Shown here: positions 12,105-63,700 of the stretch, piece after piece
How the letters are laid out: every line of letters starts with the position of its first letter
Position numbering within the stretch: the stretch's first letter is position 1
Assembly (NCBI GenBank): GCA_963676915.2
Contig: CAXXVK010000072.1
Location: 160,001-224,000 of the forward strand
DNA length: 64,000 nt
Source of the DNA: Myxococcota bacterium
Lineage (GTDB): Bacteria; Myxococcota_A; SURF-8; G963663525
Direction of reading: 5' to 3'
Made by a program: the position numbers and the translations under genes
The notes under the pieces: generated by a model
What the model was told of the DNA's origin: nothing
What the model saw: only the letters and a program-made list of their open reading frames with translations
Database searches by the model: none

Positions 12105-12146
12105 GCGAAATTTTATATTTGCACGTCCACAGAAAGGGTAAATGCC

Positions 12147-15288: not shown

Positions 15289-16178
15289 CAGAAAGAAAAT
15301 TACAAGAAGAGATTTCGTTTCTACGCCAACAGAACCACGATCTTATGGAAGAGTTGGAACGTACGAATCATGATTTGATGGAATTTGCACTCGTGCTTGA
15401 TGCCAAGGTGGAAGAGAAAACGAAAACCATCATGGAAATCAACAGTCAGCTCGAAAAACGAGTCGCTCAGCGAACCCATGAACTTGAGGTGGCGAATAAA
15501 GAACTCGAAGCGTTTGCTTATTCGGTATCACATGATTTGCGTGCTCCATTGCGGGCTATCGACGGATTCAGTCAGGCAATTATCGAAGATTTCTCGGATT
15601 CCTTCGATGATACGGCGAAGCTATATTTCGAGCGCATTCGAAAAGCAACCTTGAATATGGCAAGTCTGATCGATGATTTGCTGGAGTTGTCACGTATCAC
15701 GCGATCTGAGTTCAATGTCAGTGCAATCGATCTCGTTGCTTTGGCAAATGAGACGATCAAACTTTTACACCTGACGGAGCCGGAGAGAAAATACACTTTC
15801 CTTTGCCCTGAACGATTGGTTGTACAAGCAGACCTTGGACTCATGAGCATTGCGCTGAACAACCTGATTGGAAATGCCTGGAAATACACTTCCAAAACGG
15901 AAAGAAGTGTCATCGAATTCGGTACTATTGAGCAGAACGGCAAACCTCTGTATTTTATTAAAGACAATGGGGTGGGCTTCAATAACAAGTATGTGAAAAC
16001 CTTGTTTCAACCTTTTCAGCGCTTACATCCAAGCTCGGAGTTCGAAGGAACCGGAGTTGGTTTGGCAACCGTAAGTCGGGTTATTCAAAGACACAACGGA
16101 GAAATATGGGGAGAAGGCGAAGAAGGAAAAGGTGCGACCTTTTTCTTTACATTGGGTACTCGGTCGGAGGTTTTATAA
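15285..16178 (+). CDS. Sensor-less histidine kinase (coiled coil + HisKA + HATPase)
   Basis: FAYSVSHDLRAPLR, NLIGNAWKY, DNGVGF, FEGTGVGL. Confidence 0.92.
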   Translation: MTERKLQEEISFLRQQNHDLMEELERTNHDLMEFALVLDAKVEEKTKTIMEINSQLEKRVAQRTHELEVANKELEAFAYSVSHDLRAPLRAIDGFSQAIIEDFSDSFDDTAKLYFERIRKATLNMASLIDDLLELSRITRSEFNVSAIDLVALANETIKLLHLTEPERKYTFLCPERLVVQADLGLMSIALNNLIGNAWKYTSKTERSVIEFGTIEQNGKPLYFIKDNGVGFNNKYVKTLFQPFQRLHPSSEFEGTGVGLATVSRVIQRHNGEIWGEGEEGKGATFFFTLGTRSEVL

Positions 16179-16630
16179 TGAATGCTTTTAAGAGAAATAT
16201 TATTTTTTTAGTCGAAGACAATCCTGACGATGAAATTCTCACTCGTCGTGCCCTGAAAAGTAACAATCTTATCAACGAAATAGTAGTGGCACATGATGGA
16301 CAGGAAGCCATCGATTACCTATCCAATGAAAAGCCTTACGATAAAGGTCGCTTAACAGATTTTATCGCTTTTATTTTGCTGGATTTGAAACTACCGAAAA
16401 TCGGTGGTTTGGAAGTGTTGAAATTTGTCAGGTCCAACCCTGAAACAAAATTGACTCCGGTAATCATCCTAACATCTTCCAAAGAGGAAAGTGATATTGC
16501 GGAAAGTTATCGATTAGGAGCCAATAGTTATGTGCAAAAACCCGTCAGTTTCGCAAAGTTTACTGAATCGGTAAAACTGATGGGAGAGTATTGGTTGATA
16601 TTGAATGAATCTTGCTATCGGGATTTGTAA
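16178..16630 (+). CDS. Single-domain response regulator (Rcp1-like)
   Basis: LVEDNPDD, LLDLKLPK, LTSS, GANSYVQKP; ATG overlaps the kinase stop (TAATG). Confidence 0.9.
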   Translation: MNAFKRNIIFLVEDNPDDEILTRRALKSNNLINEIVVAHDGQEAIDYLSNEKPYDKGRLTDFIAFILLDLKLPKIGGLEVLKFVRSNPETKLTPVIILTSSKEESDIAESYRLGANSYVQKPVSFAKFTESVKLMGEYWLILNESCYRDL

Positions 16631-19600
16631 ATGAAAGAAACACTTAACATCCTGTTTGTTGAAGATTCAGAAACGGACGAACTTCTCTTTCTACGGGAAC
16701 TAAGTAAGGATGGTTTTCACGTAGAGTCTTTTCGTGTACAAACTCGTAACGAACTATTTCACGTTTTACAAGAAGATAAATGGGATCTGATTGTTATCGA
16801 TTATGTCGTCCCGGGCTTCGACGGACTGGAAGCTTTGAAAATCTGTACCGAAAAGAAACCGTTTCTCCCTATTATCTCAACAAGTGGAATCGTTAACGAA
16901 AGTGTCATTGTAGAAACCTTGCAATCCGGTGCTTACGATTATGTGTTGAAATCCAACCTCAAAAGAATTCCATCCGTTGTTAAACGAGCCTTGGAAAACG
17001 CGGAAATTCGTAAAAAAAGTGCACGGAACGAAGAAGAAAACATTCGCCTGCAACACGAATTGAAGCTGAAATATGAGATTGCGGAAATCTGCTTGTCAAC
17101 ACCGGAAAAGGATATGTACTCCGCAGTGCTGAAAATTGTGTTGAAAGAACTCAATAGTCCTTTCGGAGTATTTGGTTACGTCAACGACAGAAACTCGCTC
17201 GTATGCCCGTCGATGTCCCATGAGGTATGGGAACGCTGCAAGATGCCGAAGAAAGAGATAGAGTTCCCCAAGAGAAGTTGGAGTGGAATTTGGGGAAAGG
17301 CGTTGGCTGAAAAAAGGATTACTTTAAAAAACGAACCTGGCAAGGTTCCAGATGGTCATATTCCGATTACAAGATCACTCAATGTACCTGTTGTCTTTAA
17401 AGGCAACGTTATTGGTTTGTTTATGGTAGCGAATAAAGAAACCGACTATTCGCAAGCCGACACGTTATTGCTGGAAATGATTTCAAAACATATTTCACCA
17501 ATTCTGCAATCCAGACTTGAGATGGCCAGAGAATTGTATCGCCGTAAAAGGGCGGAGAAACGTTTTGCTCTCGCAATCAGGGGAGCAAATGACGGAGTTT
17601 GGGATTGGGATTTGCGAACGGATGAAATGTATTTTTCACCTCGTTGGAAAGAAATGATCGGCTATCGTGATGACGAATTAGAGAGTCGAATGGAGGTTTG
17701 GGAAGAACGCATCCATCCACAAGATCTGGAACATGTTCGGGGAGCAATTCAATCGTGCATATATGGGGAAGTAGAACGATTTACGCAAGAACACAGAATA
17801 CGACACAAAAATGGGGATTATCGATGGATTCTTATTTGTGGCGCATGTGAAAGGGACGATTTAGGAAAGCCGGTATTACTGGCAGGATCTTATACGGATA
17901 TTACTGAGAAAAAAACGGCAGAGCAGGAACGCAGTCGGCTTTATGAAGAAGCTCGACAAAAAGCGCATGATATGAGTTCGTTACTAAATGGAGCCAAGAA
18001 TGTTTTAGAAAAAGATGATTTTCGAGTGATTGCCAGACAATTATTCGATGAGGCGTGCGAGAATACAGGTGCTACTTCCGGGTACGTTGCATTACTAAGT
18101 GAAGATGGAGAGGAAAACGAAGTATTGTTTCTGGAATCAGGAGGATTGCCTTGCGATGTAGATCCTGGTTTGCCGATGCCTGTTCGAGGGTTGCGTGGTG
18201 AGGTTTATCGGTCCGGAAAAGTAGTCTGCCACAACGATTTTACGAATAGCGAATGGCAAAAGTTCCTACCCCAAGGACATGTTTCACTGAAAAACGTCCT
18301 GTTTGCTCCTCTAAATGTAGGGAAAAGAACTATAGGGATAATAGGGTTGGCCAACAAGGCTTCCGACTTCACAAAACGGGATTTGAGTATTGCAGCAGGA
18401 TTTGGGGAGCTGGCAGCTATTGCGCTCAAAAACTGGAAAATCCACGAAGCATTACGGAAAAGCGAAGAACAGCATCGCTTGTTGGCCGAAAATACGTCCG
18501 ATGTAATCTGGATGATGGGTCTTGATACTACCTTGACCTATGTGAATCCTGCCATACAGAAGAAGTTTGGGTTTTCACCGGAGGAGTTTATTGGAACTCG
18601 CCTTGGTAGCCATACGGACCCAAAAAATTTGCATATTATAAATAAGGCGCTCAAGGATAGTTTAACCAGGTCTCCAAATTACAAGACAATAACGTTCGAG
18701 TCTGAAATGTTTAGAAGCGATAAAACGTCGGTTCCTGTTGAAATATCCGCGAAAATCATTTCGGACGATGTTGGAGAACCCATAGCGCTGCAAGGCGTAA
18801 TTCGAGATATAACCGACAGAAAAAAAGCGGAAAAAGAAATTCTTGAACATCAGGAGCAATTGGAAAGAAAAGTAGAGGAACGCACTGTTGATTTGAAAAA
18901 AGCGCTTCAGCAGACCGAAGAATCACGAGAACGCATCGACACGATTTTAAAATCCGTAGCGGATGGATTGATCGTAACGGATAAGCACAATCATGTGTTG
19001 TTGATGAACCGAGCTGCAGAGGATATTTTGGGAATTCGTTTTAGTGATGTACTCAATCGTTCTATCGAGTACGCTATAGATGACAATACTCTTCGAGAAA
19101 AAATTATTACTACATTGGGTAAACAGCAAACCGGGTACGAATTCCACTTCACGCATGAAGACCCGGATACCCGGATAACCAAAACCATGCGTGCACGAAC
19201 CTCGGTCGTGCCGGATCATTTCGGGGGAATCAGCGGGATTGTAACCATTTTGCAGGATATTACCAAAGAACATGAAATCGACCGTATGAAAACGGAATTT
19301 ATATCCACAGCGGCTCACGAGTTGCGCACGCCGTTGACATCTATTCGTGGTTTTTCAGAAATATTGATGATTCGAGACAATATTCCAAAAGAAGAGAAAA
19401 ATAAATACCTTGGGCATATTCATAAACAATCGATTGGCTTGTCAAACATTATCAACGATCTGCTCGATATTTCTCGGATTGAATCAGGACGGGGATTTTC
19501 CCTGGATAAAAAACTTTGTGATGGTCAAACTGCGATAAAAAATGTTTTGCCGCATTTCAAAGAAGTTAGTCCAAAACATACATTTGTGGCAAAATTACAT

Positions 19601-19975
19601 GAAAAACCCGTTGAGCTATGGGTTGATGTCGAGAAAATGGAACAGGTTCTACGCAATCTTCTGAGCAATGCCGTCAAATATTCACCCAATGGGGGAACAA
19701 TAACCGTTAGTACGTGCTTGGATCAAAATGAGGATGAAGAAAATAAAGAATACTTTGTCATGTCCATTCAAGACGAGGGAATGGGTATGACACAGAACCA
19801 AGTTTCTCGTATTTTTGAGAAATTTTATCGAGCGGATGCTTCAAATACTGCGATTGAAGGGACAGGGTTAGGTATGAGTATTGTGAGGCACCTTGTGAAG
19901 GCTCATGACGGGAAAATAACAATCTCGAGTGAAAAAGGCACAGGAACGACCGTAAATATTTATTTGCCTTTATAG
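16631..19975 (+). CDS. Hybrid histidine kinase REC-GAF-PAS-GAF-PAS-PAS-HisKA-HATPase
   Basis: N-terminal REC (VEDS, IDY, YVLK), GVWDWD PAS, AAHELRTPL, NAVKYS, GTGLGM. Confidence 0.9.
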   Translation: MKETLNILFVEDSETDELLFLRELSKDGFHVESFRVQTRNELFHVLQEDKWDLIVIDYVVPGFDGLEALKICTEKKPFLPIISTSGIVNESVIVETLQSGAYDYVLKSNLKRIPSVVKRALENAEIRKKSARNEEENIRLQHELKLKYEIAEICLSTPEKDMYSAVLKIVLKELNSPFGVFGYVNDRNSLVCPSMSHEVWERCKMPKKEIEFPKRSWSGIWGKALAEKRITLKNEPGKVPDGHIPITRSLNVPVVFKGNVIGLFMVANKETDYSQADTLLLEMISKHISPILQSRLEMARELYRRKRAEKRFALAIRGANDGVWDWDLRTDEMYFSPRWKEMIGYRDDELESRMEVWEERIHPQDLEHVRGAIQSCIYGEVERFTQEHRIRHKNGDYRWILICGACERDDLGKPVLLAGSYTDITEKKTAEQERSRLYEEARQKAHDMSSLLNGAKNVLEKDDFRVIARQLFDEACENTGATSGYVALLSEDGEENEVLFLESGGLPCDVDPGLPMPVRGLRGEVYRSGKVVCHNDFTNSEWQKFLPQGHVSLKNVLFAPLNVGKRTIGIIGLANKASDFTKRDLSIAAGFGELAAIALKNWKIHEALRKSEEQHRLLAENTSDVIWMMGLDTTLTYVNPAIQKKFGFSPEEFIGTRLGSHTDPKNLHIINKALKDSLTRSPNYKTITFESEMFRSDKTSVPVEISAKIISDDVGEPIALQGVIRDITDRKKAEKEILEHQEQLERKVEERTVDLKKALQQTEESRERIDTILKSVADGLIVTDKHNHVLLMNRAAEDILGIRFSDVLNRSIEYAIDDNTLREKIITTLGKQQTGYEFHFTHEDPDTRITKTMRARTSVVPDHFGGISGIVTILQDITKEHEIDRMKTEFISTAAHELRTPLTSIRGFSEILMIRDNIPKEEKNKYLGHIHKQSIGLSNIINDLLDISRIESGRGFSLDKKLCDGQTAIKNVLPHFKEVSPKHTFVAKLHEKPVELWVDVEKMEQVLRNLLSNAVKYSPNGGTITVSTCLDQNEDEENKEYFVMSIQDEGMGMTQNQVSRIFEKFYRADASNTAIEGTGLGMSIVRHLVKAHDGKITISSEKGTGTTVNIYLPL

Positions 19976-19998
19976 AAAAGGCGATATTCTGGAGTTGT

Positions 19999-20370
19999 TT
20001 GATGAAAACCATACTTGTAGTTGATGATCGGGCGGAGATCCGTGAAATTGTAAAAGTAACCTTGAGTATTGAGGATTTTACGATTTTAGAGGCAAAGAAC
20101 GGTGATGAAGCCGTGCGGCTGGCAAGATTGCACAAACCGGACTTGATTATTATGGATTTGATGATGCCAGGTACTATCGATGGTCTCAAAGCAACAAAAA
20201 TCATCAAAGCCGACAATCGTTTGAATGCATGTAAAATTATCATTCTGACTGCTAGAAATCAAAAAGAAGATGAGGAAGCCATTGCCCAAGTGGGAGCCGA
20301 TGATTATTTCATTAAGCCGTTTAGTCCGTTGGAATTGATGAATAAGGTGGATCAGATATTGTCAGAATAG
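19999..20370 (+). CDS. Single-domain response regulator
   Basis: VVDD, MDLMMP, LTA, KPFSP. Confidence 0.9.
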   Translation: MMKTILVVDDRAEIREIVKVTLSIEDFTILEAKNGDEAVRLARLHKPDLIIMDLMMPGTIDGLKATKIIKADNRLNACKIIILTARNQKEDEEAIAQVGADDYFIKPFSPLELMNKVDQILSE

Positions 20371-39449: not shown

Positions 39450-41212
39450 TCAGTCGCTGAAGAAGCGGGGGAAGCGTGATTTCATCCATGGCTCGACGGT
39501 TTCGAGCACTTCCTCAACCGTGTGGCCGTCCAGTGCCTGCGTGAAGAGATTTTCGGCTTCTTGGCGGTGGGAATCGCGAATCAGGCCGCGAATGAACGGA
39601 ATGCTCGAAGCCGCCATGCCGATTTCATCGATACCTGCACCGATCAATAACTGTGTATATAAGGGATCGCTGCCGATTTCACCGCATAGCGCAACGGGAA
39701 TTCCTGCGTCTTTGCCTGCCTGGCAGATTTGAGAAATAAGTCGCAATACCGCAGGGTGTAAAGGGCTGTATAGGTAGGCTAGCGCTTGGGAATCTCGATC
39801 GACGGCCAGCGTATACTGTACGAGGTCGTTGGTGCCTATCGAGAAGAAATCGCATTCGGTCGCGAGTCGGTCGGCTACGATACCCGCCGAGGCGGTTTCG
39901 ATCATCAGTCCTATCGGCGTATCCTGGTTGAAAATAACGCCGCACCGTTCGAGGCTTTCCTTAGCGCGCTCGATCAGTCGTTTGAGTTCACGTACTTCAC
40001 CTACGCCGGTAATCATCGGCAGCAGCAGACGCACCGGTCCCACTGCGGAAACTCGTAAAATGGCGCGGACCTGCGCTTCCAGCCATTCCGGGTGCAGGCG
40101 GGCGGTTCGGACGCCTCGGGTTCCCAGGATCGGGTTACGCTCGTCTGCGAACGGCCAGTACTGCGGCTTTTTGTCACCGCCGAGATCCTGTGTTCGGATC
40201 GTGACGGTTCGCCCTTCGGCGCCTTCCACCAGCTTTCGATAGCAGGAATAATGTTCTTCCTCGTCGGGAGGACGCTTCCGGTCTATGAACATGAACTCCG
40301 TACGGAACAGCGTGACGGCATCCGCACCGAAGGTTTCGAGGTTCGCCAGTTTTTCCACCGAGGCGAGGTTCGCACCCAGTTGGATGTGTGTTCCATCGAT
40401 GGTTTTCGCGGGAGCGGTCTTGCCGTTAAGCAACTCTAATGCTAGGGAATTCCAGCGGTTACGCCTGCTTTCGTAGTGGTCTCGCTGTTTTTTTTTGTGG
40501 GATCGACTACAACCCGTCCACGGCCACCGTCCACAATTACGGGAGTGGAATCGTGGATTTCATCCAGCGCATTATGAACGCCCAAAACCGTCGGAATTCC
40601 AAGCGATTGGGCGATAATCGCCACATGGCTGGCGCGTCCGCCTTTTTCAAGGACGATACCGGCGATTTTTGTCTTGTAAAACAACGTCGTTTCCGCCGGA
40701 GATAGATTCTCGGCCACGACAATCGCATTTTCCGGAATATCCGACAGGCTTCGAGACGGAATCCCCATAAGTTGATCGAAAACGTGTCGTGTCGATTGAT
40801 GGAGATCCGTGGTTCGTTCCTGCAACGTTTCGTTGGGGTTGCTGGAAAACACCGTTTCCAGATCGCGAACGGTGTTTTCCAATGCCCATTCCGCATTCAA
40901 CAGGCGTGAGCGAATTTTTTCGCGGGTTCCGTCGAGAAGAATGGGATCTTGAAGCATCAAAAAATGAGCTTGCAGAATATCGTAATGATTCCTGGACGTT
41001 CTGGAATCGATTTTTCCGATTATGTTTTCAAGGTGAGCGGTGGCTTCGGTTACGGAGTTTTCGAAGCGTAAAAGTTCGTCTTTGACGGAGGATTTTTCAA
41101 TATGGTAGCGCTTGAAACCTCGTTGCTCGCATTGCAAGCTAAAGGCGTTTCCCATGCCGATTCCCGCCGAGGCGGCGATTCCGGTAAGTCTTTTGCCGGG
41201 ATTCCGTTTCAA
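39450..41212 (-). CDS. ptsI: PTS enzyme I, frameshifted at an A9 run (T9 at 40488-40496 on +)
   Basis: GGRASHVAI phospho-His, LFRTEF, DLGGDK, ERNPILG, SIGTNDL, LCGE; changing the run length rejoins the two ORFs. Confidence 0.9.
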
Positions 41213-51194: not shown

Positions 51195-51935
51195 TTACCC
51201 TTTCAGGATGATAGCCGTTCCCGCGAACAAAAGAACGATATAAACCGCTGTTCGAAAATTTCGTTCGGGCAGGCGGTTGTGGACAGCTTCGCCGAGTAAA
51301 ATCCCGATGAGCAGAGCGGGAAGCAGTTTCATGCTCAACAGCGAGGTTTCCTGGTCGATTCGTCCCGCTGCCAGATGTCCGACGAACAGCACGATGTTCA
51401 AAATCAACCATACGGCGGCCAGAGTACTGCGGAAACGTCCCTTGGTCACGAGGGAACGGCTGGCCCAATAGGCGACCAACGGCCCGCCGGAAACCCACAA
51501 TCCCTGGGCAACTCCTCCGCCGACCAGCCAAAGCCACGAGGCGTCTTCTTCGGGTGTTTCCTGGGTGGTTCTGGAAGCTTTATAGATGCGCCATAGCTCG
51601 AAACCTGCAAGAAACAGGACGAAAACGCCGAAAAGAGGCTTCATCCAATCGGCGTTGGCATGTTCGAATAGCCAGATTCCGAGCGGCATTCCGAGCATGG
51701 ACAGGGGCAAAATTTGTTTCAAAAGGCGTTTGAAATCGATTCCTTGTCGATGGCGTCCGACGAGATAGATGCAGATGACGAGGTTTAGCGGGACAATCAC
51801 CGGAACCAGCAGTGAAAGGGGAAAGAACAACAGGCCGAAGGTCAGCGAAAGGATGGCGCTGCCGAATCCCACTGCCGTACCGACCATGTATCCCACCGTA
51901 ATCACGATGAAGAGAAAAAGATCTTCCAGTCCCAT
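51195..51935 (-). CDS. TauE/SafE (TSUP) family exporter
   Basis: GTAVGFGSA and SGGPLV repeats, about 8 TM segments; start MGLEDLF. Confidence 0.85.
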   Translation of the reverse strand: MGLEDLFLFIVITVGYMVGTAVGFGSAILSLTFGLLFFPLSLLVPVIVPLNLVICIYLVGRHRQGIDFKRLLKQILPLSMLGMPLGIWLFEHANADWMKPLFGVFVLFLAGFELWRIYKASRTTQETPEEDASWLWLVGGGVAQGLWVSGGPLVAYWASRSLVTKGRFRSTLAAVWLILNIVLFVGHLAAGRIDQETSLLSMKLLPALLIGILLGEAVHNRLPERNFRTAVYIVLLFAGTAIILKG

Positions 51936-51948
51936 TTGTGCCGTTCTT

Positions 51949-52791
51949 TCAACCCGAAACACGGGCGGCGGCTCCTCGCGAAAGGAGCAGCACACCCGAA
52001 ACGATAACCAGCATCAATACCACTTGGACGACGACAGGATATAGACCGTAGACGGTGACTTCAAGAAAAAGCGGCGTGAGAATCGTGGCTGAATTCACGG
52101 CGGAAACAACCTCGATGGCTCGGCTTTTCAAAAAGCCGAACTGTGTGACGACGGTGGCGGTGGCGGCGAAGAGAAGGGCGATGTATGGAAACGGATTGCT
52201 CAGTTGTCCCACGAAATCGCCCCCGGCTTCCACCAATGCGATGTCTGCCAGAAACAAGGCCAGACCGATGAGCATCCCGGCCATGGAACCATAGGCCAAT
52301 CCGTGCATTTTGGGCCAGAAACGTGACACGTAGCAACAAACCACACCACCGGCAACCAGTGTGACGACCGCCGTTACCAAGCGCCATGTGGTGAATTTTC
52401 GTATCGATTCACCATGCTCCCCGCCGAGATAGGCCAACAGTGAGGTTCCCACCACCACAAGAGCGATTCCCAAAAAATCTTCGCGTCCGAAACGTTCTCC
52501 GATCACGTACACGGCGTACAGTCCCAGGCCGATCAGTCCCACGCCCGTCATGGCCGACACCGCCGAAGGAGATTGCGACAGCTTCAGGCCCAGAGAAAAC
52601 GGTATGGTGGCGCTGGCGGTCATGGCAAACCCCAGAATCCAGAGAATGAGTTTTCCCCGGTACGGAGGGTGGAACATTTCCCGCCAGTGGCTAAAGACAT
52701 GCACAAACTGTTTTTGCACGCCTTTGCCGACGTTCATCAGCAAGGCGGCAAGCATTCCCAGCGCGAGACCGAGGATAAAAAGGTCGTTCAT
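51949..52791 (-). CDS. DMT/EamA-like membrane transporter
   Basis: About 9 TM segments, GKGVQK, IGERF..DFLGIALVVVG. Confidence 0.6.
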   Translation of the reverse strand: MNDLFILGLALGMLAALLMNVGKGVQKQFVHVFSHWREMFHPPYRGKLILWILGFAMTASATIPFSLGLKLSQSPSAVSAMTGVGLIGLGLYAVYVIGERFGREDFLGIALVVVGTSLLAYLGGEHGESIRKFTTWRLVTAVVTLVAGGVVCCYVSRFWPKMHGLAYGSMAGMLIGLALFLADIALVEAGGDFVGQLSNPFPYIALLFAATATVVTQFGFLKSRAIEVVSAVNSATILTPLFLEVTVYGLYPVVVQVVLMLVIVSGVLLLSRGAAARVSG

Positions 52792-52819
52792 TATAGCTTC
52801 CGTTTCGGTCCTGCCGGAG

Positions 52820-54022
52820 TTACATCATTTTCGACGCTTCAAGCATCAATGTGTCATTCGTACCGTCCATGATGGTTAGCAAGGGTGCGTCTCTTGCATA
52901 TTTTTCGAGCTTGTAATCCTTGGCGATGCCGTAGCCTCCCAGAACCTGAACCATGGTGTTGGTATGTTTTACGGCAAGATCCGTCGTGTAGACTTTCCCC
53001 GTTACGCTGGTGAGCAAGTCTCCGGGGAAGGCGTTTTCGCAATGCCAGCTTCCTTTCCACAACAGCGTTCGTGCCGATTCGATGGCGGCACGGCAATCGA
53101 AAAACTTTTTGGTGACAAGCTGATGCTCGAAAATCGGTTTGCCCCACTGTACGCGCTCTTTGGCGTAGGAAAGCGCTTCCTCGTAGGCGGCGCGCATCAA
53201 TCCCACGGCCAGATAGCCGGTGCCCAGGTTGCCCACCGTCATGATGGAGCGATGCAGGAAGGGATAGGCGTCTCCCGGAGGAAACAGCAGATGATCCTCT
53301 GGAATCTCCACGTCATCAAGGTATACAGGAGCTTGATTCAAGGCCCGCAATCCCATGCGGTCCTCGGCTTTGCCTTTCGTCAGTCCGTCGGCGTCACCGG
53401 GAACGATAAATGCCCCGGACCCCAACAGTCCCTTCGCAGGCTCGACGCAGGCGAAGACGATGTAATTCTTGGCGATTCCACCGTTGCTGATAAAGTTCGA
53501 CTTCACGCCGTTGAGAATCCAGCGGTCCCCTTTTTTTACGGCTGTGGTGCGATGGCGAACCGTAGGATCGAAGTAGTTTTTCCCGTCCGAACCTACGTTC
53601 GGTTCACTGCTGCCCCAGGCCGTCACGGCTTGCCCGGTTTCGTCTTCGCAATAGGGACGGACGTATGTATCGACGAGAGGTTTGTTGGTGGAGGCAAGAA
53701 ACGCCACCAGTGCAGGCACTACGGAAGACGCCATCAGCGACGCCGTAAAGCCGACGCCGTAACGGGCCAGTTCTTCCCATACCAATGCCGTTGTGGTCGC
53801 GCCCAAACCCAGACCGCCGAATTCCTCTTTGATGCCCATCTTGTGAAATCCGAGGGCAAATGCCTGTGCCATGGCTTTCTTAAACGTTTCCGTTTCGAAA
53901 ATCGCTTGGGCGTCGGACATTTTATCCAGTTCGATTTCCGCCGGTTCCAGCACGTTTTTGCCGAAATCGCGTGCAGTTTGCACGAATTGTTCCTGGATGT
54001 CGGAGATTTTGAAATCGATCAT
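52820..54022 (-). CDS. Acyl-CoA dehydrogenase family protein (atypical active site)
   Basis: SEPNVGSD, LNGVKSNFISNG, YAKERVQWGKPI, QVLGGYG, ARDA...IMDGT. Confidence 0.9.
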   Translation of the reverse strand: MIDFKISDIQEQFVQTARDFGKNVLEPAEIELDKMSDAQAIFETETFKKAMAQAFALGFHKMGIKEEFGGLGLGATTTALVWEELARYGVGFTASLMASSVVPALVAFLASTNKPLVDTYVRPYCEDETGQAVTAWGSSEPNVGSDGKNYFDPTVRHRTTAVKKGDRWILNGVKSNFISNGGIAKNYIVFACVEPAKGLLGSGAFIVPGDADGLTKGKAEDRMGLRALNQAPVYLDDVEIPEDHLLFPPGDAYPFLHRSIMTVGNLGTGYLAVGLMRAAYEEALSYAKERVQWGKPIFEHQLVTKKFFDCRAAIESARTLLWKGSWHCENAFPGDLLTSVTGKVYTTDLAVKHTNTMVQVLGGYGIAKDYKLEKYARDAPLLTIMDGTNDTLMLEASKMM

Positions 54023-54795
54023 TATTCTCCCCGCTTTCCGGCAAAGAAATCGGTCATTTTGAAATAATGCGGCAAAAAGGCTTCGCCATCGACTTCCTGG
54101 AGAATCGTTCCGGGAAGCATGGTGTTGTGGCTGACGATGTGGAAGGCCAACATCACGTTAAGACCGTCGAGTTCGTACCACGGGTCGGTTTCGGATTTCT
54201 GGAACGTCACTTCAGCCGTGCCGACTTCGCAACTTACGAGATCGAGATCGGTTTTTTGGGAGGCGAGATATACGGGGCCGTCGAATCCCGGTTGAAGATC
54301 GATGCGCGGCATTCCCTTGAAGAGATACGTTGGTCCGGTGGGGGGCAGTTGGGGCAGAGTGGCGTTCAGTTCCCCTTTGACCTCCACGAAGCGTACGCCG
54401 TTGCGTTCCACCCAGCCGTGAAGTCGGTTGCCGTCTTTTTCGTAGTGAATCGACGCCATTTTTTTGGGAAAACCGAAGATGTCCCGGCCGTTGTAATTGC
54501 GCGCTTCGTTGTCGATGGGCATCGACAGGCAGTATGCGCCGGGTTCGCCTTTGTATTTGCAGCGAATGAAAAGCGCCGCTTCGTGGTATCCCGGCCCGAG
54601 GTTGGTTTCAGGGTATTCGGCGATGAAGATCAGCCCGCCGGGCATATCGGCCTGTTCCAGAGGCGCCGGTAAAAGCGGTGCTGTGGTTTCGGCAGGTGAG
54701 CCGAACATTACGCCCATCATTTTCGCGTTTTCGAAACGTCGCACGCCTAATGCATAGTAGCTATCCAGTTCTTCCGGTGTTTTTACAAATCCCAT
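54022..54795 (-). CDS. Acetoacetate decarboxylase family protein
   Basis: LLPAPLE, YHEAAL, GRDIFGFPKK (Schiff-base Lys motif). Confidence 0.85.
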   Translation of the reverse strand: MGFVKTPEELDSYYALGVRRFENAKMMGVMFGSPAETTAPLLPAPLEQADMPGGLIFIAEYPETNLGPGYHEAALFIRCKYKGEPGAYCLSMPIDNEARNYNGRDIFGFPKKMASIHYEKDGNRLHGWVERNGVRFVEVKGELNATLPQLPPTGPTYLFKGMPRIDLQPGFDGPVYLASQKTDLDLVSCEVGTAEVTFQKSETDPWYELDGLNVMLAFHIVSHNTMLPGTILQEVDGEAFLPHYFKMTDFFAGKRGE

Positions 54796-54825
54796 GATTT
54801 CCTCCTGTTAGGTGTCCTATGTGAA

Positions 54826-55671
54826 TCAAGAAAATTTCTTGTACAAACCCAATTCGGATGATTGGGCTTTCAAAATTGCGCCTTCAACGAGTCCCGGCGA
54901 TAGCCGATAGGCCAGCCATCCCGCTACGCCCGAAGCGGTCATGATCAAGCGCCGTTTGCGTTTTTCGATCATGTCGAGGATTTTTGCGGCGGCCTGTGCC
55001 TGCGTGTGGTGGGCTGGACGATCGGGCAGCACCAACGATCCGTCGGCCGCGAGAATGCGTTTTTCCGGGTCGTGTTCGGTAAATCCGAGGTGCGCCACGC
55101 CGAAGTGCACGCCGTCATCCATCATTTCCAGCCGTAGAGATTCGCACAAACCCGTCAGGGCGGCTTTTCCTGCGCAGTAGGTGGAAGCGCCCGGCAGTCC
55201 GAACAGCCCGGCGATGCTGGAGACGAACACCACGCTGCCTTTGGTTTGGCGAAGATCGTCGATGGCGGCGCGGGTCGGGTAGATGCAGCCCATCAGATTG
55301 GTTTGAATGGTCTGTGAACAGACTTCGGGAGACAGCTCGTAAAATTTCCCCCGCATGGAGACACCCGCATTGTTAACGAGAATGTCCACCGGTCCGAAAT
55401 GCTTTTGCGCCGTTTCGACCATATGCAGAGCATCTTCCCACTTGCCGACATCTCCCGTGACCGCTTCGACGTTGGGGTTGATTTTTCGCAGCTTTTCCAG
55501 CGAATCCATCAGGCGCTTTTCGCCTCGTGCGGAAATGACGACGTTGGCTCCCCGTTCTGCGAGCGCTCGGGCGACCGCCAGACCGACACCTCGGCTGGCT
55601 CCGGTTATCAGTGCCGTTTTTCCCGTAAACCGGGTTTGCACGATGGGCATGCTTTCGTTCTCGTTCGGCAT
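54826..55671 (-). CDS. Short-chain dehydrogenase/reductase
   Basis: TGASRGVG, NNAG, SS, YCAGK. Confidence 0.92.
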   Translation of the reverse strand: MPNENESMPIVQTRFTGKTALITGASRGVGLAVARALAERGANVVISARGEKRLMDSLEKLRKINPNVEAVTGDVGKWEDALHMVETAQKHFGPVDILVNNAGVSMRGKFYELSPEVCSQTIQTNLMGCIYPTRAAIDDLRQTKGSVVFVSSIAGLFGLPGASTYCAGKAALTGLCESLRLEMMDDGVHFGVAHLGFTEHDPEKRILAADGSLVLPDRPAHHTQAQAAAKILDMIEKRKRRLIMTASGVAGWLAYRLSPGLVEGAILKAQSSELGLYKKFS

Positions 55672-55776
55672 GGTTTGGTTCCTTTACTTCCAGTCGTTTC
55701 AAAAGCGATGAAGGATTGACGTTGGTTCCGTTCCTTTAAAAATCTTTCATTTCACGAAGATTCGCTCCAAATCCCG

Positions 55777-58389
55777 CTACAAGGCTTCATGCTCGGTTCG
55801 GGCGATGATTTCGTCCTGGATTTCCCGTCCAAGATCCACGAAATACGTGCTGTATCCCCCCACCTTGACGATCAAATCACGATGCCGCTCCGGGTGTTCT
55901 TTCGCTTCTTTGAGCGTTTCTGAAGAAATGCAGGTCGGCTGAAGCTGTGCCCCACCAAGCTTGAAATACGTACGGATCAGGTCGGCCCATTTTTTTCGTG
56001 CTTCCTGCGATTCTCCGATGGAACTGGGATGAAATTTCATGTTGACGGCACAGCCGAGCACGTCTTCGAACGGCAGAGATGCCACCGAGCGAAGAGCCGC
56101 CGTGGCTCCGCAACGTTCTACGTTGTAGGGATTGCAGCTTGCCGCATAAGGTACGGCTGCTTTTCGACCGTCTGCTCCGGCCATCGACAACCGACCATCG
56201 ATGGTGTGGGTGATCATGCTGATGATATAGACCACGAACGGTCCGTTACGTGTGGTGCGATAATCGTAGGTGATATCGAAAAGCCCTTTGCAGACTTTTG
56301 CCGCCAGTGCATCCGTTTCTTCGTGACCGTTGCCCCATTTTCCCGGCAATTTTTCAATGCTTCGGAGTAAGTCTGCATCGTCCATGAACGAACGATCTAC
56401 CGCTTCGAGCAACCGACGCATCGTGCAGGTTTTCTGTTCGTAGATCAGTTTTTGAATGACATAGAGCGAATCGATCAGGTTCGCCACGGAGTTGATCATC
56501 GAAATCCCGGCGAGGTCGTATGTCGCTCCGCCCTGGGTCACGTCTTTTCTCGATTCCAGGCAACCATCCATGAAGGCCGAAATCTGTGGTGCGGGGAGGT
56601 ATTTGGCGAACAGGTCGTCCCGCAGGTTGGAAGCCCGTACGATTTTGTCGATGAAAAATTTTGCCTGCTGGAAAAAAGCCTCCAAAAACGTGTCGAAATC
56701 GTCAAAAGTGTCCGGATCTCCCGTTTTCAGTCCTTCTCCCCGGATTGTTCCCGCCAGGATCGCCGAATCCCCATTGCGCATGGTAATGTCCAGCAGACGC
56801 GCCAGTTGTAAGGCGTTGGCGCTCATGCTGCCGGTTTTTCCCGGACATATTCCCTCGACACAGCCCATGATGGCGTAGTCCCGTGCATCTTCTTCCTTGA
56901 AGTCTCGGCGCTTCATGGCCTCGACCATCGTTTCGTCGTTGAACAGCGAGAAGCTGGATGTCCCCTGTTGCAGAAAGGAAGCCACGTCGAGCAGGAGGTC
57001 ATCGGGCGTTGCGTCGTGGACGCGCAACGAAATGTTGGTGATGGCTTTGGACTTGTGCGCCGCTTCGAGAAACAGCCGGGTCAACTCGTTGGTGGCATCG
57101 CGGCCTTCTGCATCGACGCCGCCGAGGGTCACGGGCGAAGATCCCAAGAAGCGATGGTAGAAATGACCCAAAATGTTCGATTCAGGTCGAATGTTTTGCG
57201 ACATGATCTTTAAAAGGAGTTCTTCTAAAAGATCCAATGCTTCTTCGCGGGAAATTTCGCCTGTTTCGAGATCCTTCCGGTAGTACTCGATAAGATCCTG
57301 ATCCAGACGTCCGAAACAGTGCAGGTTTACCGGGTGGGCCAGTTCCACTGCGGTTTTGATCGTCCACAGCGCCTGTACCGCTTCACGAAAATTCCGGGCT
57401 GGATGTAGAGGCGCATGGCCGCAGATCGCAGCCATCTGTTGCAATTCCCACTTTCGTTCTCCATCAGGCTCGTTTTTGGCTTCACGCTCGATTTTTTCGG
57501 CAAGTCTGCCGGCAAACACCGCCACGCCTTCTAGGGCGACGAGTTGAGATTCGAGAATTTCCTTTTCTTCACGCTCCAGATGTTGCGAATCCAGCTCGGC
57601 CCGGATGTTTTCCATCATTCCTACAAGACCGAGCTTCAGTGGGGTTCGGTAGTCGAGAATGACATGGCCCTGATAGGTCGCGATGGTCGCGCAGGTGGAA
57701 ATCATCTGGACTTGTCGAGACGTATTTCCCGGAAGCGCTACGGCGAAATCGTGCATGTCTTTCGAGTAGAGTCCTGATTTCAGCGTCTCTTCTTCCAGTC
57801 GATCGACGACGGTTCGACCTTTCCAATAGGGAAGTAACCGTTTTAGTAGTTCATCCCGGTCGTTTTTTTTGATCCGATAGGGGTTGATGTCCCTCTCGGA
57901 CATGGTTTTGAGTTCCATGTTGAGAGGTTGAGCGCCTGCGTGGCGGACGATTTTCTGATTGCGGATGAAATCCCCGAGTACGCCTTTACCCAGCATGTAA
58001 CGGAACGCTTTGGCCATCGATCCCAGACGAAAGCGCAGCATCGAAGAACGGGTCAATTCGGACTCGAACACCTGGTTGAACACGCCGCGTTCGATATCGA
58101 TGGGAATACCCAGAAAAAATTCCGTCCAGGTTCCCGCTATGCGCTCTTCACGGTCGAGGTAGATGGTTACGTTTTCATATACATGTTTCAATGCGCGAGC
58201 GACACGAAGCGCCTGGGTTACGTCCTGACCTTCTTGCGCCTGCCATCCTTGGGTGAAATAGCGGGCGCGTTCCACCGAAATCATGGCGTCCCCGGATTGA
58301 TACCGTTGCTTCATGCTTCGGATGCGGTCCCGTCGTGTTTCCGAAGTTTTTACGCGCTCTACCGTTTCCCTTCCGGCGAACGTTTCCAT
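55777..58389 (-). CDS. Glycyl radical enzyme (PFL2/eliminase-like), substrate unknown
   Basis: ISVERAR, GRLDQ, MGCVE Cys loop, C-terminal LIVKVGGYSTYF Gly loop, QDEIIART. Confidence 0.92.
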   Translation of the reverse strand: METFAGRETVERVKTSETRRDRIRSMKQRYQSGDAMISVERARYFTQGWQAQEGQDVTQALRVARALKHVYENVTIYLDREERIAGTWTEFFLGIPIDIERGVFNQVFESELTRSSMLRFRLGSMAKAFRYMLGKGVLGDFIRNQKIVRHAGAQPLNMELKTMSERDINPYRIKKNDRDELLKRLLPYWKGRTVVDRLEEETLKSGLYSKDMHDFAVALPGNTSRQVQMISTCATIATYQGHVILDYRTPLKLGLVGMMENIRAELDSQHLEREEKEILESQLVALEGVAVFAGRLAEKIEREAKNEPDGERKWELQQMAAICGHAPLHPARNFREAVQALWTIKTAVELAHPVNLHCFGRLDQDLIEYYRKDLETGEISREEALDLLEELLLKIMSQNIRPESNILGHFYHRFLGSSPVTLGGVDAEGRDATNELTRLFLEAAHKSKAITNISLRVHDATPDDLLLDVASFLQQGTSSFSLFNDETMVEAMKRRDFKEEDARDYAIMGCVEGICPGKTGSMSANALQLARLLDITMRNGDSAILAGTIRGEGLKTGDPDTFDDFDTFLEAFFQQAKFFIDKIVRASNLRDDLFAKYLPAPQISAFMDGCLESRKDVTQGGATYDLAGISMINSVANLIDSLYVIQKLIYEQKTCTMRRLLEAVDRSFMDDADLLRSIEKLPGKWGNGHEETDALAAKVCKGLFDITYDYRTTRNGPFVVYIISMITHTIDGRLSMAGADGRKAAVPYAASCNPYNVERCGATAALRSVASLPFEDVLGCAVNMKFHPSSIGESQEARKKWADLIRTYFKLGGAQLQPTCISSETLKEAKEHPERHRDLIVKVGGYSTYFVDLGREIQDEIIARTEHEAL

Positions 58390-58412
58390 GCGTCCATCCT
58401 TTCCGGTGTCGT

Positions 58413-59021
58413 TCAGGGCGCTTCACCCTCTACCGAATCCAACAATGTCGAAGCCATCCATTTCAGGTGTTGTTTGCGCCGAACGATCGATTCGTCCGAC
58501 ATCGGGTCGTCGCCAAGCAGTTGGCTGATAAGCTCTCCGTAAGTGAAATAGCTGATGATGGCTCCGTAAAAACTGATCAGCAGGTGTTCGGCGGCGGCTT
58601 CGCCTTGTTGAGTTTTCGGATACACGTCTTTCAGCGTTTGGATGCCCATCGAAAAAATCGGTGCCATGTGCCCGGCGATGCGTTCCATGTGAGCACCCCC
58701 GGCGGCTTCACGCTGGACGATCCGCCCGAAATTCCGGTTTTCCACCAGAAATTCGATGTAAACGTCTATCAAAGACAACAGGCGCGTTTTGATATCTCCG
58801 TCTTGGGTCAGCGCTTTGGCGAGTTTTCCTCCAAGCTTGCTGTAATAGCGATCCAGCAGCTCGGTCAGCAGTCCTTGTTTGCTTTGAAAATGGTAGTGGA
58901 TTAGTGCTTTATTTACACCCGATTTTTCGGCAATTTCCCGTGTAGTTGCCGCATCGAAACCGACGGTGCCGAACAACTCATCCGCTGCCGACAGAATTCG
59001 TTCTTTCGCGTTTTTATTCAT
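58413..59021 (-). CDS. TetR-family regulator
   Basis: KERILSAADELF...GFDAATTREIAEKSGVNKALIHYHF; ATG at 59021 preferred because it lies downstream of the promoter and operator. Confidence 0.93.
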   Translation of the reverse strand: MNKNAKERILSAADELFGTVGFDAATTREIAEKSGVNKALIHYHFQSKQGLLTELLDRYYSKLGGKLAKALTQDGDIKTRLLSLIDVYIEFLVENRNFGRIVQREAAGGAHMERIAGHMAPIFSMGIQTLKDVYPKTQQGEAAAEHLLISFYGAIISYFTYGELISQLLGDDPMSDESIVRRKQHLKWMASTLLDSVEGEAP

Positions 59022-59042
59022 ATTGTAACGTTTCTTCGCTTT

Positions 59043-59091
59043 TTTAACCAACCGGCCAGTTAAATTGTAGTTCGTTTCTTTTTTTTGTCAA
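59043..59091 (-). promoter_or_regulatory. Sigma70 promoter with an adjacent palindromic operator
   Basis: Minus strand TTGACA-N16-TACAAT, followed at once by TTTAACtggCCGGttgGTTAAA. Confidence 0.65.
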
Positions 59092-59252: not shown

Positions 59253-60671
59253 TTACTCCTGCCATCCTCCGTCGAACCAACCTAGGGACTCCATGGCCGT
59301 CCATGTGCTCGGATCGCCAAAACTTCCCAAACCCATTTTGTACTCGTAATTTACAAGTTTATCTACTGGGTCGTTTTCTACGGATTCGTGGTCGATGATG
59401 TAGCCGACATCGTCGTTACCAAGCCCCACGATGAATTTATGCGGGCTGACCATTTTCTCCTTCAGGCGCAGGCTGAATTCAGGGGTGGATTCTCCTGGAA
59501 ACGAAGCGAATTCCGCCGGGCCCAGTTTGTGCCAACTGACTTCCAGTTCTTTGACGATCAGTCCTTCTTCCGGGTCGTCGATGAAAGTGCGAAACGGAAT
59601 TCCGGCATAGTTGACGAGATCGTCGAAAAAGCCATCCGTTGCTGAAGAATAAACAGCCCAGCGGTGACGAATATCGAACTCTTCTGCTTTGGAAGGCGTT
59701 TCGATGGCCTCCATTGCGGCATCCGCGAGAAGTTTTCCCATGTTGTAGGCGCGTTCGTATTCATCGCCTCCGGGAACGTCGGGAGATAGCGGTCCATCGT
59801 GCACGGCGGCGGAAAAACCTTGTAAAAACATGGCAGGTGCGCCGGTGCGTTCTTCGATTTCCTCACGATACCCCCAAATATAATCCGCCGAAACGAGGTT
59901 GTCGGCCCAGGGAAGTTGGGTAGGATGCTTGGCGAAATTGGTCAGTGTCAAAACGACTTCGTCCGAGGTGTTTTTGGCCTGCATCACGGTAACGGAATCA
60001 TCGAGGATCTCCGAGCACCCCTCGTCCCTGCCGGTGTAGCCGACGAGTTCACTTTTTCCGAAATACAACTCTGTTTCATCCATCGAATTAGCGGCATCGA
60101 CGGCGGCTTGCGTGATGCGTTCCACATGCCATTCCAGAAATTCCTTGGGAATGGCTTGGTTGACATCTTGGAAGATGCCCACAAGATCCGGTGTTGTATG
60201 GCTGTGGCTGGAACCGAGTAAAATGTGTTGCGGTTCCAGCGAGATTTTGGGAGAGATCGCCTCAACGATGGATTCCCGAAGGGATTTGACTCCCGGCCCT
60301 TCGGCGCCGAAATCAAAATAATACCCGGCGGAGTCCATGCCGATTAGAACAAATGCCTGTCCTGCATCGTTTTGGAAAATCGCCACCTGCGCTCGCAGCC
60401 GGTCGTTGATCCCCACGCAATCTCGATGGATGCTGGGAGTACCGTATCCGCCGAGGAGTGTCCCGATTTCCGGTGTAATGTCCGCTTCTCCGTATCCCAG
60501 GTAAAATCGTGTGGCCGTAGTGGCTACTTCCTCTTCTTGTTCCTGCTCCTGCTCCGTATCGCCACCATCGTTGGAGGGGTTGGAGTTTTCGTCTTCCGTA
60601 CAGAAGGTCAGCGTAACCAACAACGGGAGCAGAAGAAATGGCAGCAAGCGCAATTGCGAAGAACGGATCAT
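59253..60671 (-). CDS. Neutral/alkaline ceramidase-like lipoprotein
   Basis: GYGEADITP, DRLRAQ, SSHSHTTP, NFAKHP, SADY, FPGE, GLGND..GY. Confidence 0.7.
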   Translation of the reverse strand: MIRSSQLRLLPFLLLPLLVTLTFCTEDENSNPSNDGGDTEQEQEQEEEVATTATRFYLGYGEADITPEIGTLLGGYGTPSIHRDCVGINDRLRAQVAIFQNDAGQAFVLIGMDSAGYYFDFGAEGPGVKSLRESIVEAISPKISLEPQHILLGSSHSHTTPDLVGIFQDVNQAIPKEFLEWHVERITQAAVDAANSMDETELYFGKSELVGYTGRDEGCSEILDDSVTVMQAKNTSDEVVLTLTNFAKHPTQLPWADNLVSADYIWGYREEIEERTGAPAMFLQGFSAAVHDGPLSPDVPGGDEYERAYNMGKLLADAAMEAIETPSKAEEFDIRHRWAVYSSATDGFFDDLVNYAGIPFRTFIDDPEEGLIVKELEVSWHKLGPAEFASFPGESTPEFSLRLKEKMVSPHKFIVGLGNDDVGYIIDHESVENDPVDKLVNYEYKMGLGSFGDPSTWTAMESLGWFDGGWQE

Positions 60672-62746: not shown

Positions 62747-63700
62747 ATGGGAGTGTCGGACGTTATGAATGATACGACAAGTTTGCTCCGGCAAATGAAA
62801 ATCGCACTCCTGTTTTTGGTGTTGGGAATTTGCCTCGGTTGTTCGGAGGATTCCACGGAACCTCGAACCATGACCGATGAGGATCTCGTGGAAACCGGCG
62901 ATCAAGACTCCGAAGACATGGAAGAAAACGCCGAAAGCGTCGTCGATGCATTCGGGCTGACCTGGATTCGTCTTCCTGCCGGAGAATACGACATGGGATG
63001 CAGTCTCGGGGATGAAACCTGCGACGATGTGGAAAAACCGCGTCACCATGTAAATCTCGAAGGGTTTTCTATTACCCAAACGGAAATCACTCAGGGACAG
63101 TTTGTGGCGTTTTTGAACGATCATGGTAACGATTGCATCGAAAGCGAATGCATCGTGGCCGATCATCCAAGTCTCTCCTGGAATGAATCCGAGAAAGTAT
63201 GGCGCGTTGAAGACGGTTTTGAGCACTATCCTCAAGCCGAAGTCAGTTGGTATGGTGCGAAAGCGTTTTGCGAATGGGTTGGTGGTCGTTTGCCGTCCGA
63301 AGCGGAATGGGAATATGCCGCCAGAGGAGGGACGACGACGAAATACTATTGCGGCGACGATGCCTCCTGCCTGGATGACATCGCCTGGTACTGGGACAAT
63401 AGCGAGAACGGAACTCATCCTGTCGCACAAAAAGATCCAAATGCTTTCGATCTTTACGACATGAGCGGTAATGTTTGGGAATGGGTGGAGGATTGCTTTC
63501 ACGATAATTACGAAAATGCTCCGGAAAACGGTCAGGTTTGGGAAGACGGCAATTGTCTGATGCGTGTTTTGCGCGGAGGCTCCTGGGATGAGGACGGCGG
63601 TACCGAATGGACGCTACGGGTCTCTCGCCGGGGGAGTTATTTTCCAACCGCCCCGGATGACGATGGCGGGTTTCGTTGTGTAAGCTCTGTAGCTGAATAG
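62747..63700 (+). CDS. FGE-sulfatase (SUMF1) domain lipoprotein
   Basis: Lipobox CLGC, RLPSEAEWEYAARGG, DMSGNVWEW, RGGSW, GFRC; start may be 62765 or 62795. Confidence 0.88.
   Translation: MGVSDVMNDTTSLLRQMKIALLFLVLGICLGCSEDSTEPRTMTDEDLVETGDQDSEDMEENAESVVDAFGLTWIRLPAGEYDMGCSLGDETCDDVEKPRHHVNLEGFSITQTEITQGQFVAFLNDHGNDCIESECIVADHPSLSWNESEKVWRVEDGFEHYPQAEVSWYGAKAFCEWVGGRLPSEAEWEYAARGGTTTKYYCGDDASCLDDIAWYWDNSENGTHPVAQKDPNAFDLYDMSGNVWEWVEDCFHDNYENAPENGQVWEDGNCLMRVLRGGSWDEDGGTEWTLRVSRRGSYFPTAPDDDGGFRCVSSVAE

Follow-up and report, generated by a model that had tools for sequence, protein, structure and literature searches.

The characterised classes of glycyl radical enzymes (GREs) include six C-O eliminases, CutC, three C-S lyases and three isomerases, to which the decarboxylases, X-succinate synthases, formate lyases, ribonucleotide reductase and aminoacyl radical enzymes are added in the accessible part of a 2026 review (PMC13450708). 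Section 7 of that review, as far as available, states that whole GRE clades are without experimental validation and that no archaeal member of the pyruvate formate-lyase (PFL)-like type has an assigned function. Here, a GRE operon is described from a Myxococcota bacterium (GenBank assembly GCA_963676915.2). It lies in a stretch of 64,000 nucleotides, hereafter called the window (contig CAXXVK010000072.1, positions 160,001 to 224,000), and encodes a TetR-family repressor, the GRE, a classical short-chain dehydrogenase/reductase (SDR), a protein with the acetoacetate decarboxylase (ADC) fold, an acyl-CoA dehydrogenase (ACAD)-like flavoprotein and two membrane carriers (Table 1). The enzyme is a GRE of the eliminase/isomerase type and lies outside all characterised classes, and the operon probably encodes an uncharacterised pathway by which a small hydroxylated compound is degraded anaerobically. 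That the locus is a TetR-autoregulated catabolic operon, whose key enzyme is a Cys-x-Glu-type GRE of an uncharacterised clade, is given a probability of about 0.55.

None of the NCBIfam equivalog models for GREs reached its cut-off with this protein. The best match was the HpsG-type sulfopropanediol enzyme with 416 bits (cut-off 1000), followed by HypD (385 against 1100), CutC (348 against 1050) and PFL (94 against 994). An AlphaFold model was built from an alignment of 22 sequences (pLDDT 82.5, pTM 0.88), and a Foldseek search with this model placed the enzyme about equally near glycerol dehydratase, propanediol dehydratase, HypD, HpzG, HplG, HpsG, CutC, IseG, IslA, PflD and YbiW. The matches to these eliminase and isomerase structures had E values of 1e-48 to 1e-42, sequence identities of 22 to 26% and TM-scores of around 0.8 by model length and around 0.8 to 0.9 by target length. 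Since the NCBIfam scores are low and the distances to these structures about equal, the enzyme is placed outside of the characterised classes. An earlier reading of the sequence alone (the sequence-only reading) had already assigned the GRE to no characterised class; no such class was found at high identity, and the neighbouring genes are conserved with the GRE, as described below.

The Cys loop of the enzyme reads MGCVEGIC and contains C510, V511 and E512. The sequence-only reading had correctly recognised the MGCVE motif but had described a loop with a single cysteine, whereas a second cysteine, C515, is present (GCVExxC) and is invariant in the family. The glycine loop KVGGY (K842 to Y846) is found as it had been described, and the C-terminal region, KVGGYSTYFVDLGREIQDEIIAR, fits the GRE fingerprint RVxG[FWY]x6-8[FL]x4Qx2[IV]x2R, taken from the accessible part of PMC13450708, at all positions but the first, where Lys replaces Arg. 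K842, G844, G845, Y846, C510, V511, H242 and C515 are invariant in all 22 aligned family members, and the position of E512 is occupied by Glu in 20 and by Asp in two of them. The Cys loops of the family members P0085 and P0103 (60 to 61% identity) carry Cys-Val-Asp in place of Cys-Val-Glu.

Residues of the active-site pocket were mapped by hand from HMMER alignments to solved GREs. Asp447, Ser282, Tyr339 and Tyr640, which we take to be pocket residues of glycerol dehydratase, correspond to Ala524, Leu356, Ser417 and Ile723. His164, the proton donor in glycerol and 1,2-propanediol dehydratase (PMC13450708, accessible text of section 5.6.1), is retained as the family-invariant H242. The sulfonate anchor of HpsG and IslA, which consists of Arg183, Gln187 and Arg672 (section 5.6.3 of the same source, as far as accessible), reads Ile236, Gln240 and Tyr721 in the GRE.

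Two insertions set the protein apart from the solved GREs. The first comprises around 65 residues (approximately 90 to 155), cannot be aligned to solved GREs and is modelled as a helical hairpin (approximately 105 to 151) with helices at 114 to 135 and 138 to 151 (pLDDT 75 to 83). The sequence-only reading had proposed a basic amphipathic segment near the N-terminus that might bind to the membrane. The insertion does carry a net positive charge (about +6), with the basic segment at 117 to 138, but shows no marked amphipathicity, as the hydrophobic moment does not exceed 0.34, compared to 0.6 for ordinary helices of the same GRE, and membrane binding is thus not supported. The second insertion has 12 residues and carries the invariant sequence N222-T-S-R-Q226. 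The family-invariant motifs at 220 to 230 (GNTSRQ, 221 to 226), 405 to 410 (NILG), 725 to 734 (MITHTIDGR) and 747 to 758 (PYAASCNPYNVE) were all modelled with a pLDDT below 50 and are probably substrate-binding loops. If the invariant Arg225 of this second insertion lies in the pocket, it would suit a substrate that is anionic.

A word-index search yielded at least 120 GRE homologues with 59 to 82% identity. Among the 120 homologues listed, which are of nearly the same length, no extra Pfam domain was detected, as all of them contain only the two GRE domains, and no fused GRE forms were found among longer proteins of 1524 to 4350 amino acids. The family is compact (55 to 82% identity) and was recovered from 25 genomic and 80 metagenomic loci; its members bear the labels of eight or more phyla, Asgard archaea among them. 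The depositors' labels for loci and homologues comprise Myxococcota, Planctomycetota (Planctomycetales, Phycisphaerae), Nitrospirales, Deltaproteobacteria/Desulfobacterales, Gemmatimonadota, Hydrogenedentota, Syntrophomonadaceae, Actinomycetota and Promethearchaeia (Asgard). A look-up of the clusters for eight of the GRE homologues returned no function name beyond 'formate C-acetyltransferase'.

The partners of the GRE were counted by tblastn, using the window proteins and representative neighbours, in 37 loci with at least 6 kb of sequence downstream and at least 3 kb upstream of the GRE gene (Table 1). An extended SDR is found in nearly all of these well-flanked loci, and the ADC-fold and ACAD-like proteins are each found in about three quarters of them, which bears out the conservation of the gene cluster that the sequence-only reading had wished to see checked. 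The usual order of the cassette is TetR-GRE-activase-(extended SDR + SDR)-ADC-ACAD; in some Myxococcota, ADC-ACAD is located ahead of TetR. The extended SDR is often fused to the SDR to give a protein of around 600 amino acids, and the SDR of the window corresponds to the C-terminal half of the fusion in most genomes. In four Asgard-type loci (L033, L034, L085 and L109), a 512-amino acid GlcD-like FAD-binding protein follows the GRE and replaces the activase and the SDRs. In locus L017 (8414-9940) and approximately nine more loci, a protein of around 500 amino acids is encoded directly upstream of the GRE on the same strand, in which an HMG-CoA_red_N-type domain is joined to a URO-D/MtaA-like barrel. 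DeoC, class II aldolases, GH31, heme genes, esterases and SCP2 were not recurrent in the wider neighbourhoods.

Table 1. Features of the GRE operon in the window and occurrence of the cassette genes in the 37 well-flanked loci
Feature	Position in window	Strand	Basis	Well-flanked loci (of 37)
Sigma-70-like promoter TTGACA-16-TACAAT	59064-59091	minus	11 of 12 consensus matches	
Palindromic operator (putative), 20 bp, TTAACTGGCCGGTTGGTTAA	59044-59063	minus	immediately 3' of the -10 hexamer	
TetR-family repressor	58413-59051	minus	Pfam TetR_N, 2e-17	24, directly upstream of GRE
GRE, 870 aa	55777-58389	minus	Pfam PFL-like PF02901, 3e-136; Gly_radical PF01228, 1e-21	
Activase				22
Extended SDR				35
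Classical SDR, 281 aa	54826-55671	minus	Pfam/NCBIfam match	at least 28 (28 at >=50% identity; more divergent copies exist)
ADC-fold protein	54022-54795	minus	Pfam match, 5e-43	28
ACAD-like flavoprotein	52820-54022	minus	three ACAD domains (Pfam)	28
DMT/EamA-like membrane carrier	51949-52791	minus	weak match, 20 bits, below cut-off	12
TauE/SafE-family anion permease	51195-51995	minus	3e-28	5
URO-D-like fusion protein				5

As described in the sequence-only reading, seven co-oriented genes on the minus strand are located behind one promoter and operator; the open reading frames, their families, a promoter-like site and a palindrome were all recovered. From TetR to TauE, the genes are separated by 23, 105 and 30 nt, a 1-nt overlap of the ACAD start with the ADC stop, 28 nt and a 47-nt overlap. 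TetR is the first gene of the operon, and its assignment agrees with the presence of both an N-terminal helix-turn-helix domain and a putative palindromic operator at its own promoter. The conserved palindrome overlaps the transcription start region, and the TTG start codon of the listed TetR reading frame falls within it. The ATG at 59021 is probably the true start and would give a protein of 202 amino acids; it is the likelier start because the alignment with the orthologue from locus L015 begins there, at residue 11. A scan of 8.6 kb found two promoter-like sites compared to a mean of 4.9 in shuffled sequences, so that the scan alone is weak proof; the promoter call carries weight because the site precedes TetR and the operator. 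Using the operator consensus TTAACTGGGCGCCCGGTTAA and allowing up to four mismatches, 23 occurrences were found in the 1.31 Mb that make up 105 related loci. Fifteen of these are located at most 150 nt upstream of TetR (33 loci contain TetR together with upstream DNA), and six further ones lie approximately 2.1 kb upstream of TetR, ahead of ADC-ACAD-TetR-GRE operons. The only occurrence within the window is the one at the operon promoter, and the same palindrome is found ahead of the same cassette in other phyla. A terminator-like hairpin (59259-59245) is located between the operon and the upstream gene (59253-60671); such sites occur at chance frequency, with 12 found and 11.8 expected. This gene, which weakly matches ceramidase-N, shows no conservation together with the cassette. 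Of five sequencing runs listed for the operon, three contain the stretch or a part of it, and none of the five is recorded as RNA.

The sequence-only reading had overlooked that the operon lacks two genes that normally follow the GRE and precede the SDR, namely those for the activase and the extended SDR. No remnant of either of them was found in the 105-nt spacer at this place. The genome encodes one intact activase of 307 amino acids on another contig (C62:92786-93709; TIGR02494, 324 bits against a cut-off of 174), which is 46 to 48% identical to cassette activases and has no adjoining GRE, and a stand-alone extended SDR (C49:49930-50919) with 57 to 58% identity to the cassette copies. A genome of the same genus (G001) shows the identical order of the seven genes, with proteins of 79 to 93% identity; there, the 90% identical extended SDR lies on a separate contig, and the activase, with 62% identity, is likewise distant from the GRE. 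Two genomes of the same order (G005 and G007) have the complete nine-gene cassette with DMT and TauE, so that TauE is found in all three relatives whose cassettes were examined. As these two genomes possess the full cassette and the congener shares the arrangement of the window, the scattering arose in the ancestor of the genus, with the parts being kept. Among this genome and 40 relatives, GRE orthologues (at least 67% identity) occur in four genomes, the ADC-fold protein in the same four, and the extended SDR in these four and one more. A tree of 42 activases joins the orphan copies of this genome and of the congener as sisters, which group among cassette-linked activases and not beside those of G005 and G007; with its single non-cassette outgroup, this tree says little on whether the orphan activase originated from a cassette copy. 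Purifying selection acts on each of the seven operon genes, as estimated from dN/dS ratios of 0.05 to 0.16 against the congener, at dS values of around 0.8 to 1.3 that are near saturation.

Two further GRE genes are located on contig C4. The first (C4:5704-8313) is intact, belongs to another clade (33% identity) and has a GCVEPTG Cys loop and a canonical RVSGY glycine loop; neither here nor in G001, G005 and G007 does an activase adjoin it. In G005, a paralogous second copy of the extended SDR adjoins a sister GRE of the C4:5704-8313 clade. The other gene, at around 40 to 43 kb, is broken into at least three frames, and the neighbouring activase gene has an internal TAA stop codon and frame breaks; this pair (C4 40000-43000) probably consists of pseudogenes, judging from its reading frames.

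The partner enzymes give some indication of the chemistry. In the numbering of true ADCs, the residues compared are Lys115, which is the Schiff-base lysine, Glu76, and Arg29, which holds the carboxylate of the substrate. The ADC-fold protein retains the FPKK motif, and among 36 such proteins, the Schiff-base lysine and the glutamate are found in all 36 and the second lysine in 35. Its only sequence matches in the PDB are true acetoacetate decarboxylases; the NCBIfam score of 57 bits is below the cut-off of 150, and the ESM Atlas returned generic ADC clusters only. The ACAD-like protein has Asp at the position of the catalytic Glu (YEGT motif) in 39 of 39 sequences; its closest matches are true short-chain acyl-CoA dehydrogenases and reductases, and it weakly resembles 3-sulfinopropanoyl-CoA desulfinase (164 bits). 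The best named matches of the extended SDR are the hopanoid-associated HpnA (211 bits, cut-off 368), the sterol demethylase SdmB (153 bits, below cut-off) and OleD (94 bits), and its PDB matches comprise the putative oxidoreductase 3WJ7, NSDHL, cinnamoyl-CoA reductase and dihydroflavonol reductase; NAD_binding_4 and thioester-reductase are matched as well. The sterol C4-demethylation protein SdmB, NSDHL-type enzymes and the 2-alkyl-3-oxoalkanoate reductase OleD interconvert beta-hydroxy and beta-keto acids. The named relatives of the extended SDR (HpnA, SdmB, OleD and NSDHL), together with the invariant Lys and Glu of the ADC-fold protein, may point to beta-keto acids as a theme of the pathway.

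A route can be drawn up on this basis. An imported small hydroxylated molecule, which is probably anionic, would release TetR from the operator. The activase would install the radical on G845, C510 would take a hydrogen from the carbinol carbon and E512 would deprotonate the hydroxyl group, so that a neighbouring leaving group departs and a ketone or an aldehyde is formed. Were the substrate a beta-hydroxy acid whose next carbon bears a leaving group, a beta-keto acid would result; alternatively, the extended SDR might turn the GRE product into one. This beta-keto acid would then be decarboxylated by the ADC-fold enzyme via a lysine Schiff base, giving a ketone for the SDR to reduce. The SDR pair might instead invert the stereochemistry of the hydroxyl group, or oxidise and re-reduce it. 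Transport of substrate and product would fall to DMT and TauE. This sequence of steps from a beta-hydroxy acid via a beta-keto acid to decarboxylation by the ADC-fold enzyme is put forward tentatively and may well turn out to be wrong. In a wider sense, it is conceivable, if doubtful, that the clade performs a GRE reaction that has not been described, which could be a 1,2-elimination on a beta-hydroxy acid or acidic polyol, or radical chemistry on a lipid-type polyol. Either reaction would represent a new anaerobic pathway common to many bacterial phyla and Asgard archaea.

Several observations weigh against the route via a beta-keto acid. Its main weakness is that the ACAD-like protein has no role in it, and the cassette encodes neither a CoA ligase nor a CoA transferase. 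The position of Arg29 in true ADCs is occupied by Ala in 32 of 36 ADC-fold proteins. As the ADC and ACAD genes are both absent from nine of the 37 well-flanked loci, they may form an accessory branch. The pocket cannot be read from the model because the invariant motifs sit in its low-confidence segments. In addition, a single intact activase would have to be shared by two GREs whose glycine loops differ (KVGGYST in the window, RVSGYSA on C4), and cross-activation of GREs by one activase is described as uncommon in the accessible part of PMC13450708.

The GRE could instead act in the manner of a diol dehydratase and convert a vicinal diol to an aldehyde, which the extended SDR, working in reverse like a cinnamoyl-CoA or fatty-acyl-CoA reductase, would turn into an acyl-CoA for beta-oxidation-type steps of the ACAD-like protein and the SDR. 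Glycerol and propanediol dehydratases are the closest structures, and the equivalent of His164 is kept. The matches of the extended SDR to NAD_binding_4, thioester-reductase, dihydroflavonol reductase and cinnamoyl-CoA reductase, and those of the ACAD-like protein to true short-chain acyl-CoA dehydrogenases and reductases would also suit such a scheme. However, Asp447 of glycerol dehydratase has become Ala, and Ser282, Tyr339 and Tyr640 have become Leu, Ser and Ile; the catalytic Glu of ACADs is replaced by Asp throughout, the cassette encodes no hydratase, thiolase, phosphotransacylase or kinase, and a Schiff-base enzyme of the ADC fold would have no place in the scheme, which is therefore regarded as unlikely. 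We consider a membrane lipid or a lipid-like polyol, for instance with a hopanoid- or sterol-type side chain, distinctly more improbable as the substrate; in this case, the basic hairpin would dock the GRE on the membrane. Such a substrate would account for HpnA and SdmB being the best NCBIfam matches of the extended SDR, and for the positive charge of the insertion, and the neighbourhood of the cassette in L015 includes SCP2 as well as MlaD/MlaE genes. The HpnA and SdmB scores are both under their cut-offs, however, SCP2 occurs in only one of 105 loci, and the low hydrophobic moment of the insertion does not fit docking. The recurrent transporters DMT and TauE are small-solute carriers, and the core of the cassette is devoid of lipases and acyl-handling genes. 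The lipid-like substrate suggested by the sequence-only reading is thus not supported.

Its other suggestion, a sulfonated substrate, would turn the operon into an organosulfonate C-S lyase pathway with TauE exporting sulfite. HpsG being the best NCBIfam match, the presence of TauE in this operon and in three relatives, and the weak likeness of the ACAD-like protein to the desulfinase would be explained by it. But in the hand-made mapping, the Arg-Gln-Arg triad (PMC13450708, accessible text of section 5.6.3) reads Ile236-Gln240-Tyr721, so that two of the three sulfonate residues are replaced (R183 by I236 and R672 by Y721), the HpsG score is far under its cut-off and TauE is found in only five of the well-flanked loci; a C-S lyase pathway is accordingly held to be very improbable. 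Least credible of all is that the operon is a decaying remnant, which has been inactive since the loss of the activase and the extended SDR. Both genes are indeed missing, with only the 105-nt spacer in their place, and a broken GRE-activase pair exists on contig C4; but all frames of the operon are intact, the dN/dS ratios are low, the congener has the identical arrangement, both genomes have retained unlinked orthologues, and the activase is also absent from 15 of the 37 cassettes elsewhere.

Among the papers listed on GREs since 2023, and in searches for GREs with acetoacetate decarboxylase and for ADC-like proteins with acyl-CoA dehydrogenase, no description of the cassette was found; the first pairing led to reviews that deal with other subjects, judging from titles and the beginnings of their abstracts, and the second to no paper. 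KVGGY and 3WJ7 led to unrelated papers only, and a paper on limonene (PMC12583861) concerns a fumarate-adding enzyme in its accessible part. New in the present analysis are the unlinked extended SDR, the operator that is shared across phyla, the counts of Asp-type ACAD-like and Lys-retaining ADC-fold proteins, and the negative results for sulfonate binding and amphipathicity. The clade combines a compact range of identity (55 to 82%) with a spread over many anaerobic phyla, including Asgard archaea, and a fixed and unusual set of partners. The conserved TetR with its 20-bp operator offers a possible handle for fishing out the inducing metabolite. If the substrate were found, the known reactions of anaerobic carbon cycling in sediments and bioreactors would be extended by one, and it would become clear which roles an ADC-fold enzyme and an Asp-type ACAD-like flavoprotein play beside a radical enzyme.

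Elsewhere in the window, the ptsI gene (enzyme I of the phosphotransferase system) of an rpoN-ptsN-rapZ-HPr cluster (39450-41212, minus strand) consists of two open reading frames that are 8 nt apart, of which 40442-41212 encodes the N-terminal and mobile domains and 39450-40433 the PEP-binding domain; the gene may be naturally split or frameshifted, or the assembly may be in error. Proteins with an FGE-sulfatase (formylglycine-generating-enzyme-like) domain are encoded at 8478-10400 and 62747-63700, the first of which has 640 amino acids and an N-terminal half without a family match. A dense signalling block at 11127-20370 with GAF-STAS and STAS proteins, anti-sigma-type kinases, histidine kinases and response regulators resembles a partner-switching module.

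Compared to known systems, the GRE shares its fold with glycerol dehydratase (1R8W) and 1,2-propanediol dehydratase (5I2A/5I2G and 9RCO), with TM-scores of 0.82 to 0.89 by target length and 0.79 to 0.82 by model length. Like these enzymes, it has its catalytic cysteine in a Cys-x-Glu loop, possesses the His164 equivalent H242 and needs a radical-SAM activase. It differs from them by an identity of only 26%, by the replacement of Asp447, Ser282, Tyr339 and Tyr640, and by its hairpin and NTSRQ insertions of about 65 and 12 residues, its Cys515 and its KVGGY loop; moreover, its partners are the SDRs, the ADC-fold and the ACAD-like proteins, and neither microcompartment genes nor an aldehyde dehydrogenase are present. 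With the C-S cleaving enzymes HpsG (6LON), IseG (5YMR) and IslA (7KQ3), it has in common the Cys-x-Glu loop, the best NCBIfam match (HpsG) and a TauE-type permease in the operon, whereas two of the three sulfonate-binding residues are absent, the NCBIfam score remains at 416 of the 1000 bits required and the identity is 24 to 26%. The isomerases YbiW/PflD and HplG (8ID7, 8ID0 and 7VUA; E 1e-46 to 1e-42) also have the Cys-x-Glu loop, and as in their case, a carbonyl product would be passed to downstream enzymes; the identity is 22 to 25%, and aldolase or kinase partners are absent. None of the characterised classes in the accessible part of PMC13450708 has this set of partners. The ADC-fold partner shares FPKK with the Schiff-base lysine, and Glu76, with acetoacetate decarboxylase (3BGT, 3BH2 and 3C8W). 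In contrast to that enzyme, it has Ala in place of Arg29, scores 57 instead of 150 bits, and is always paired and translationally coupled with an Asp-type ACAD-like protein.

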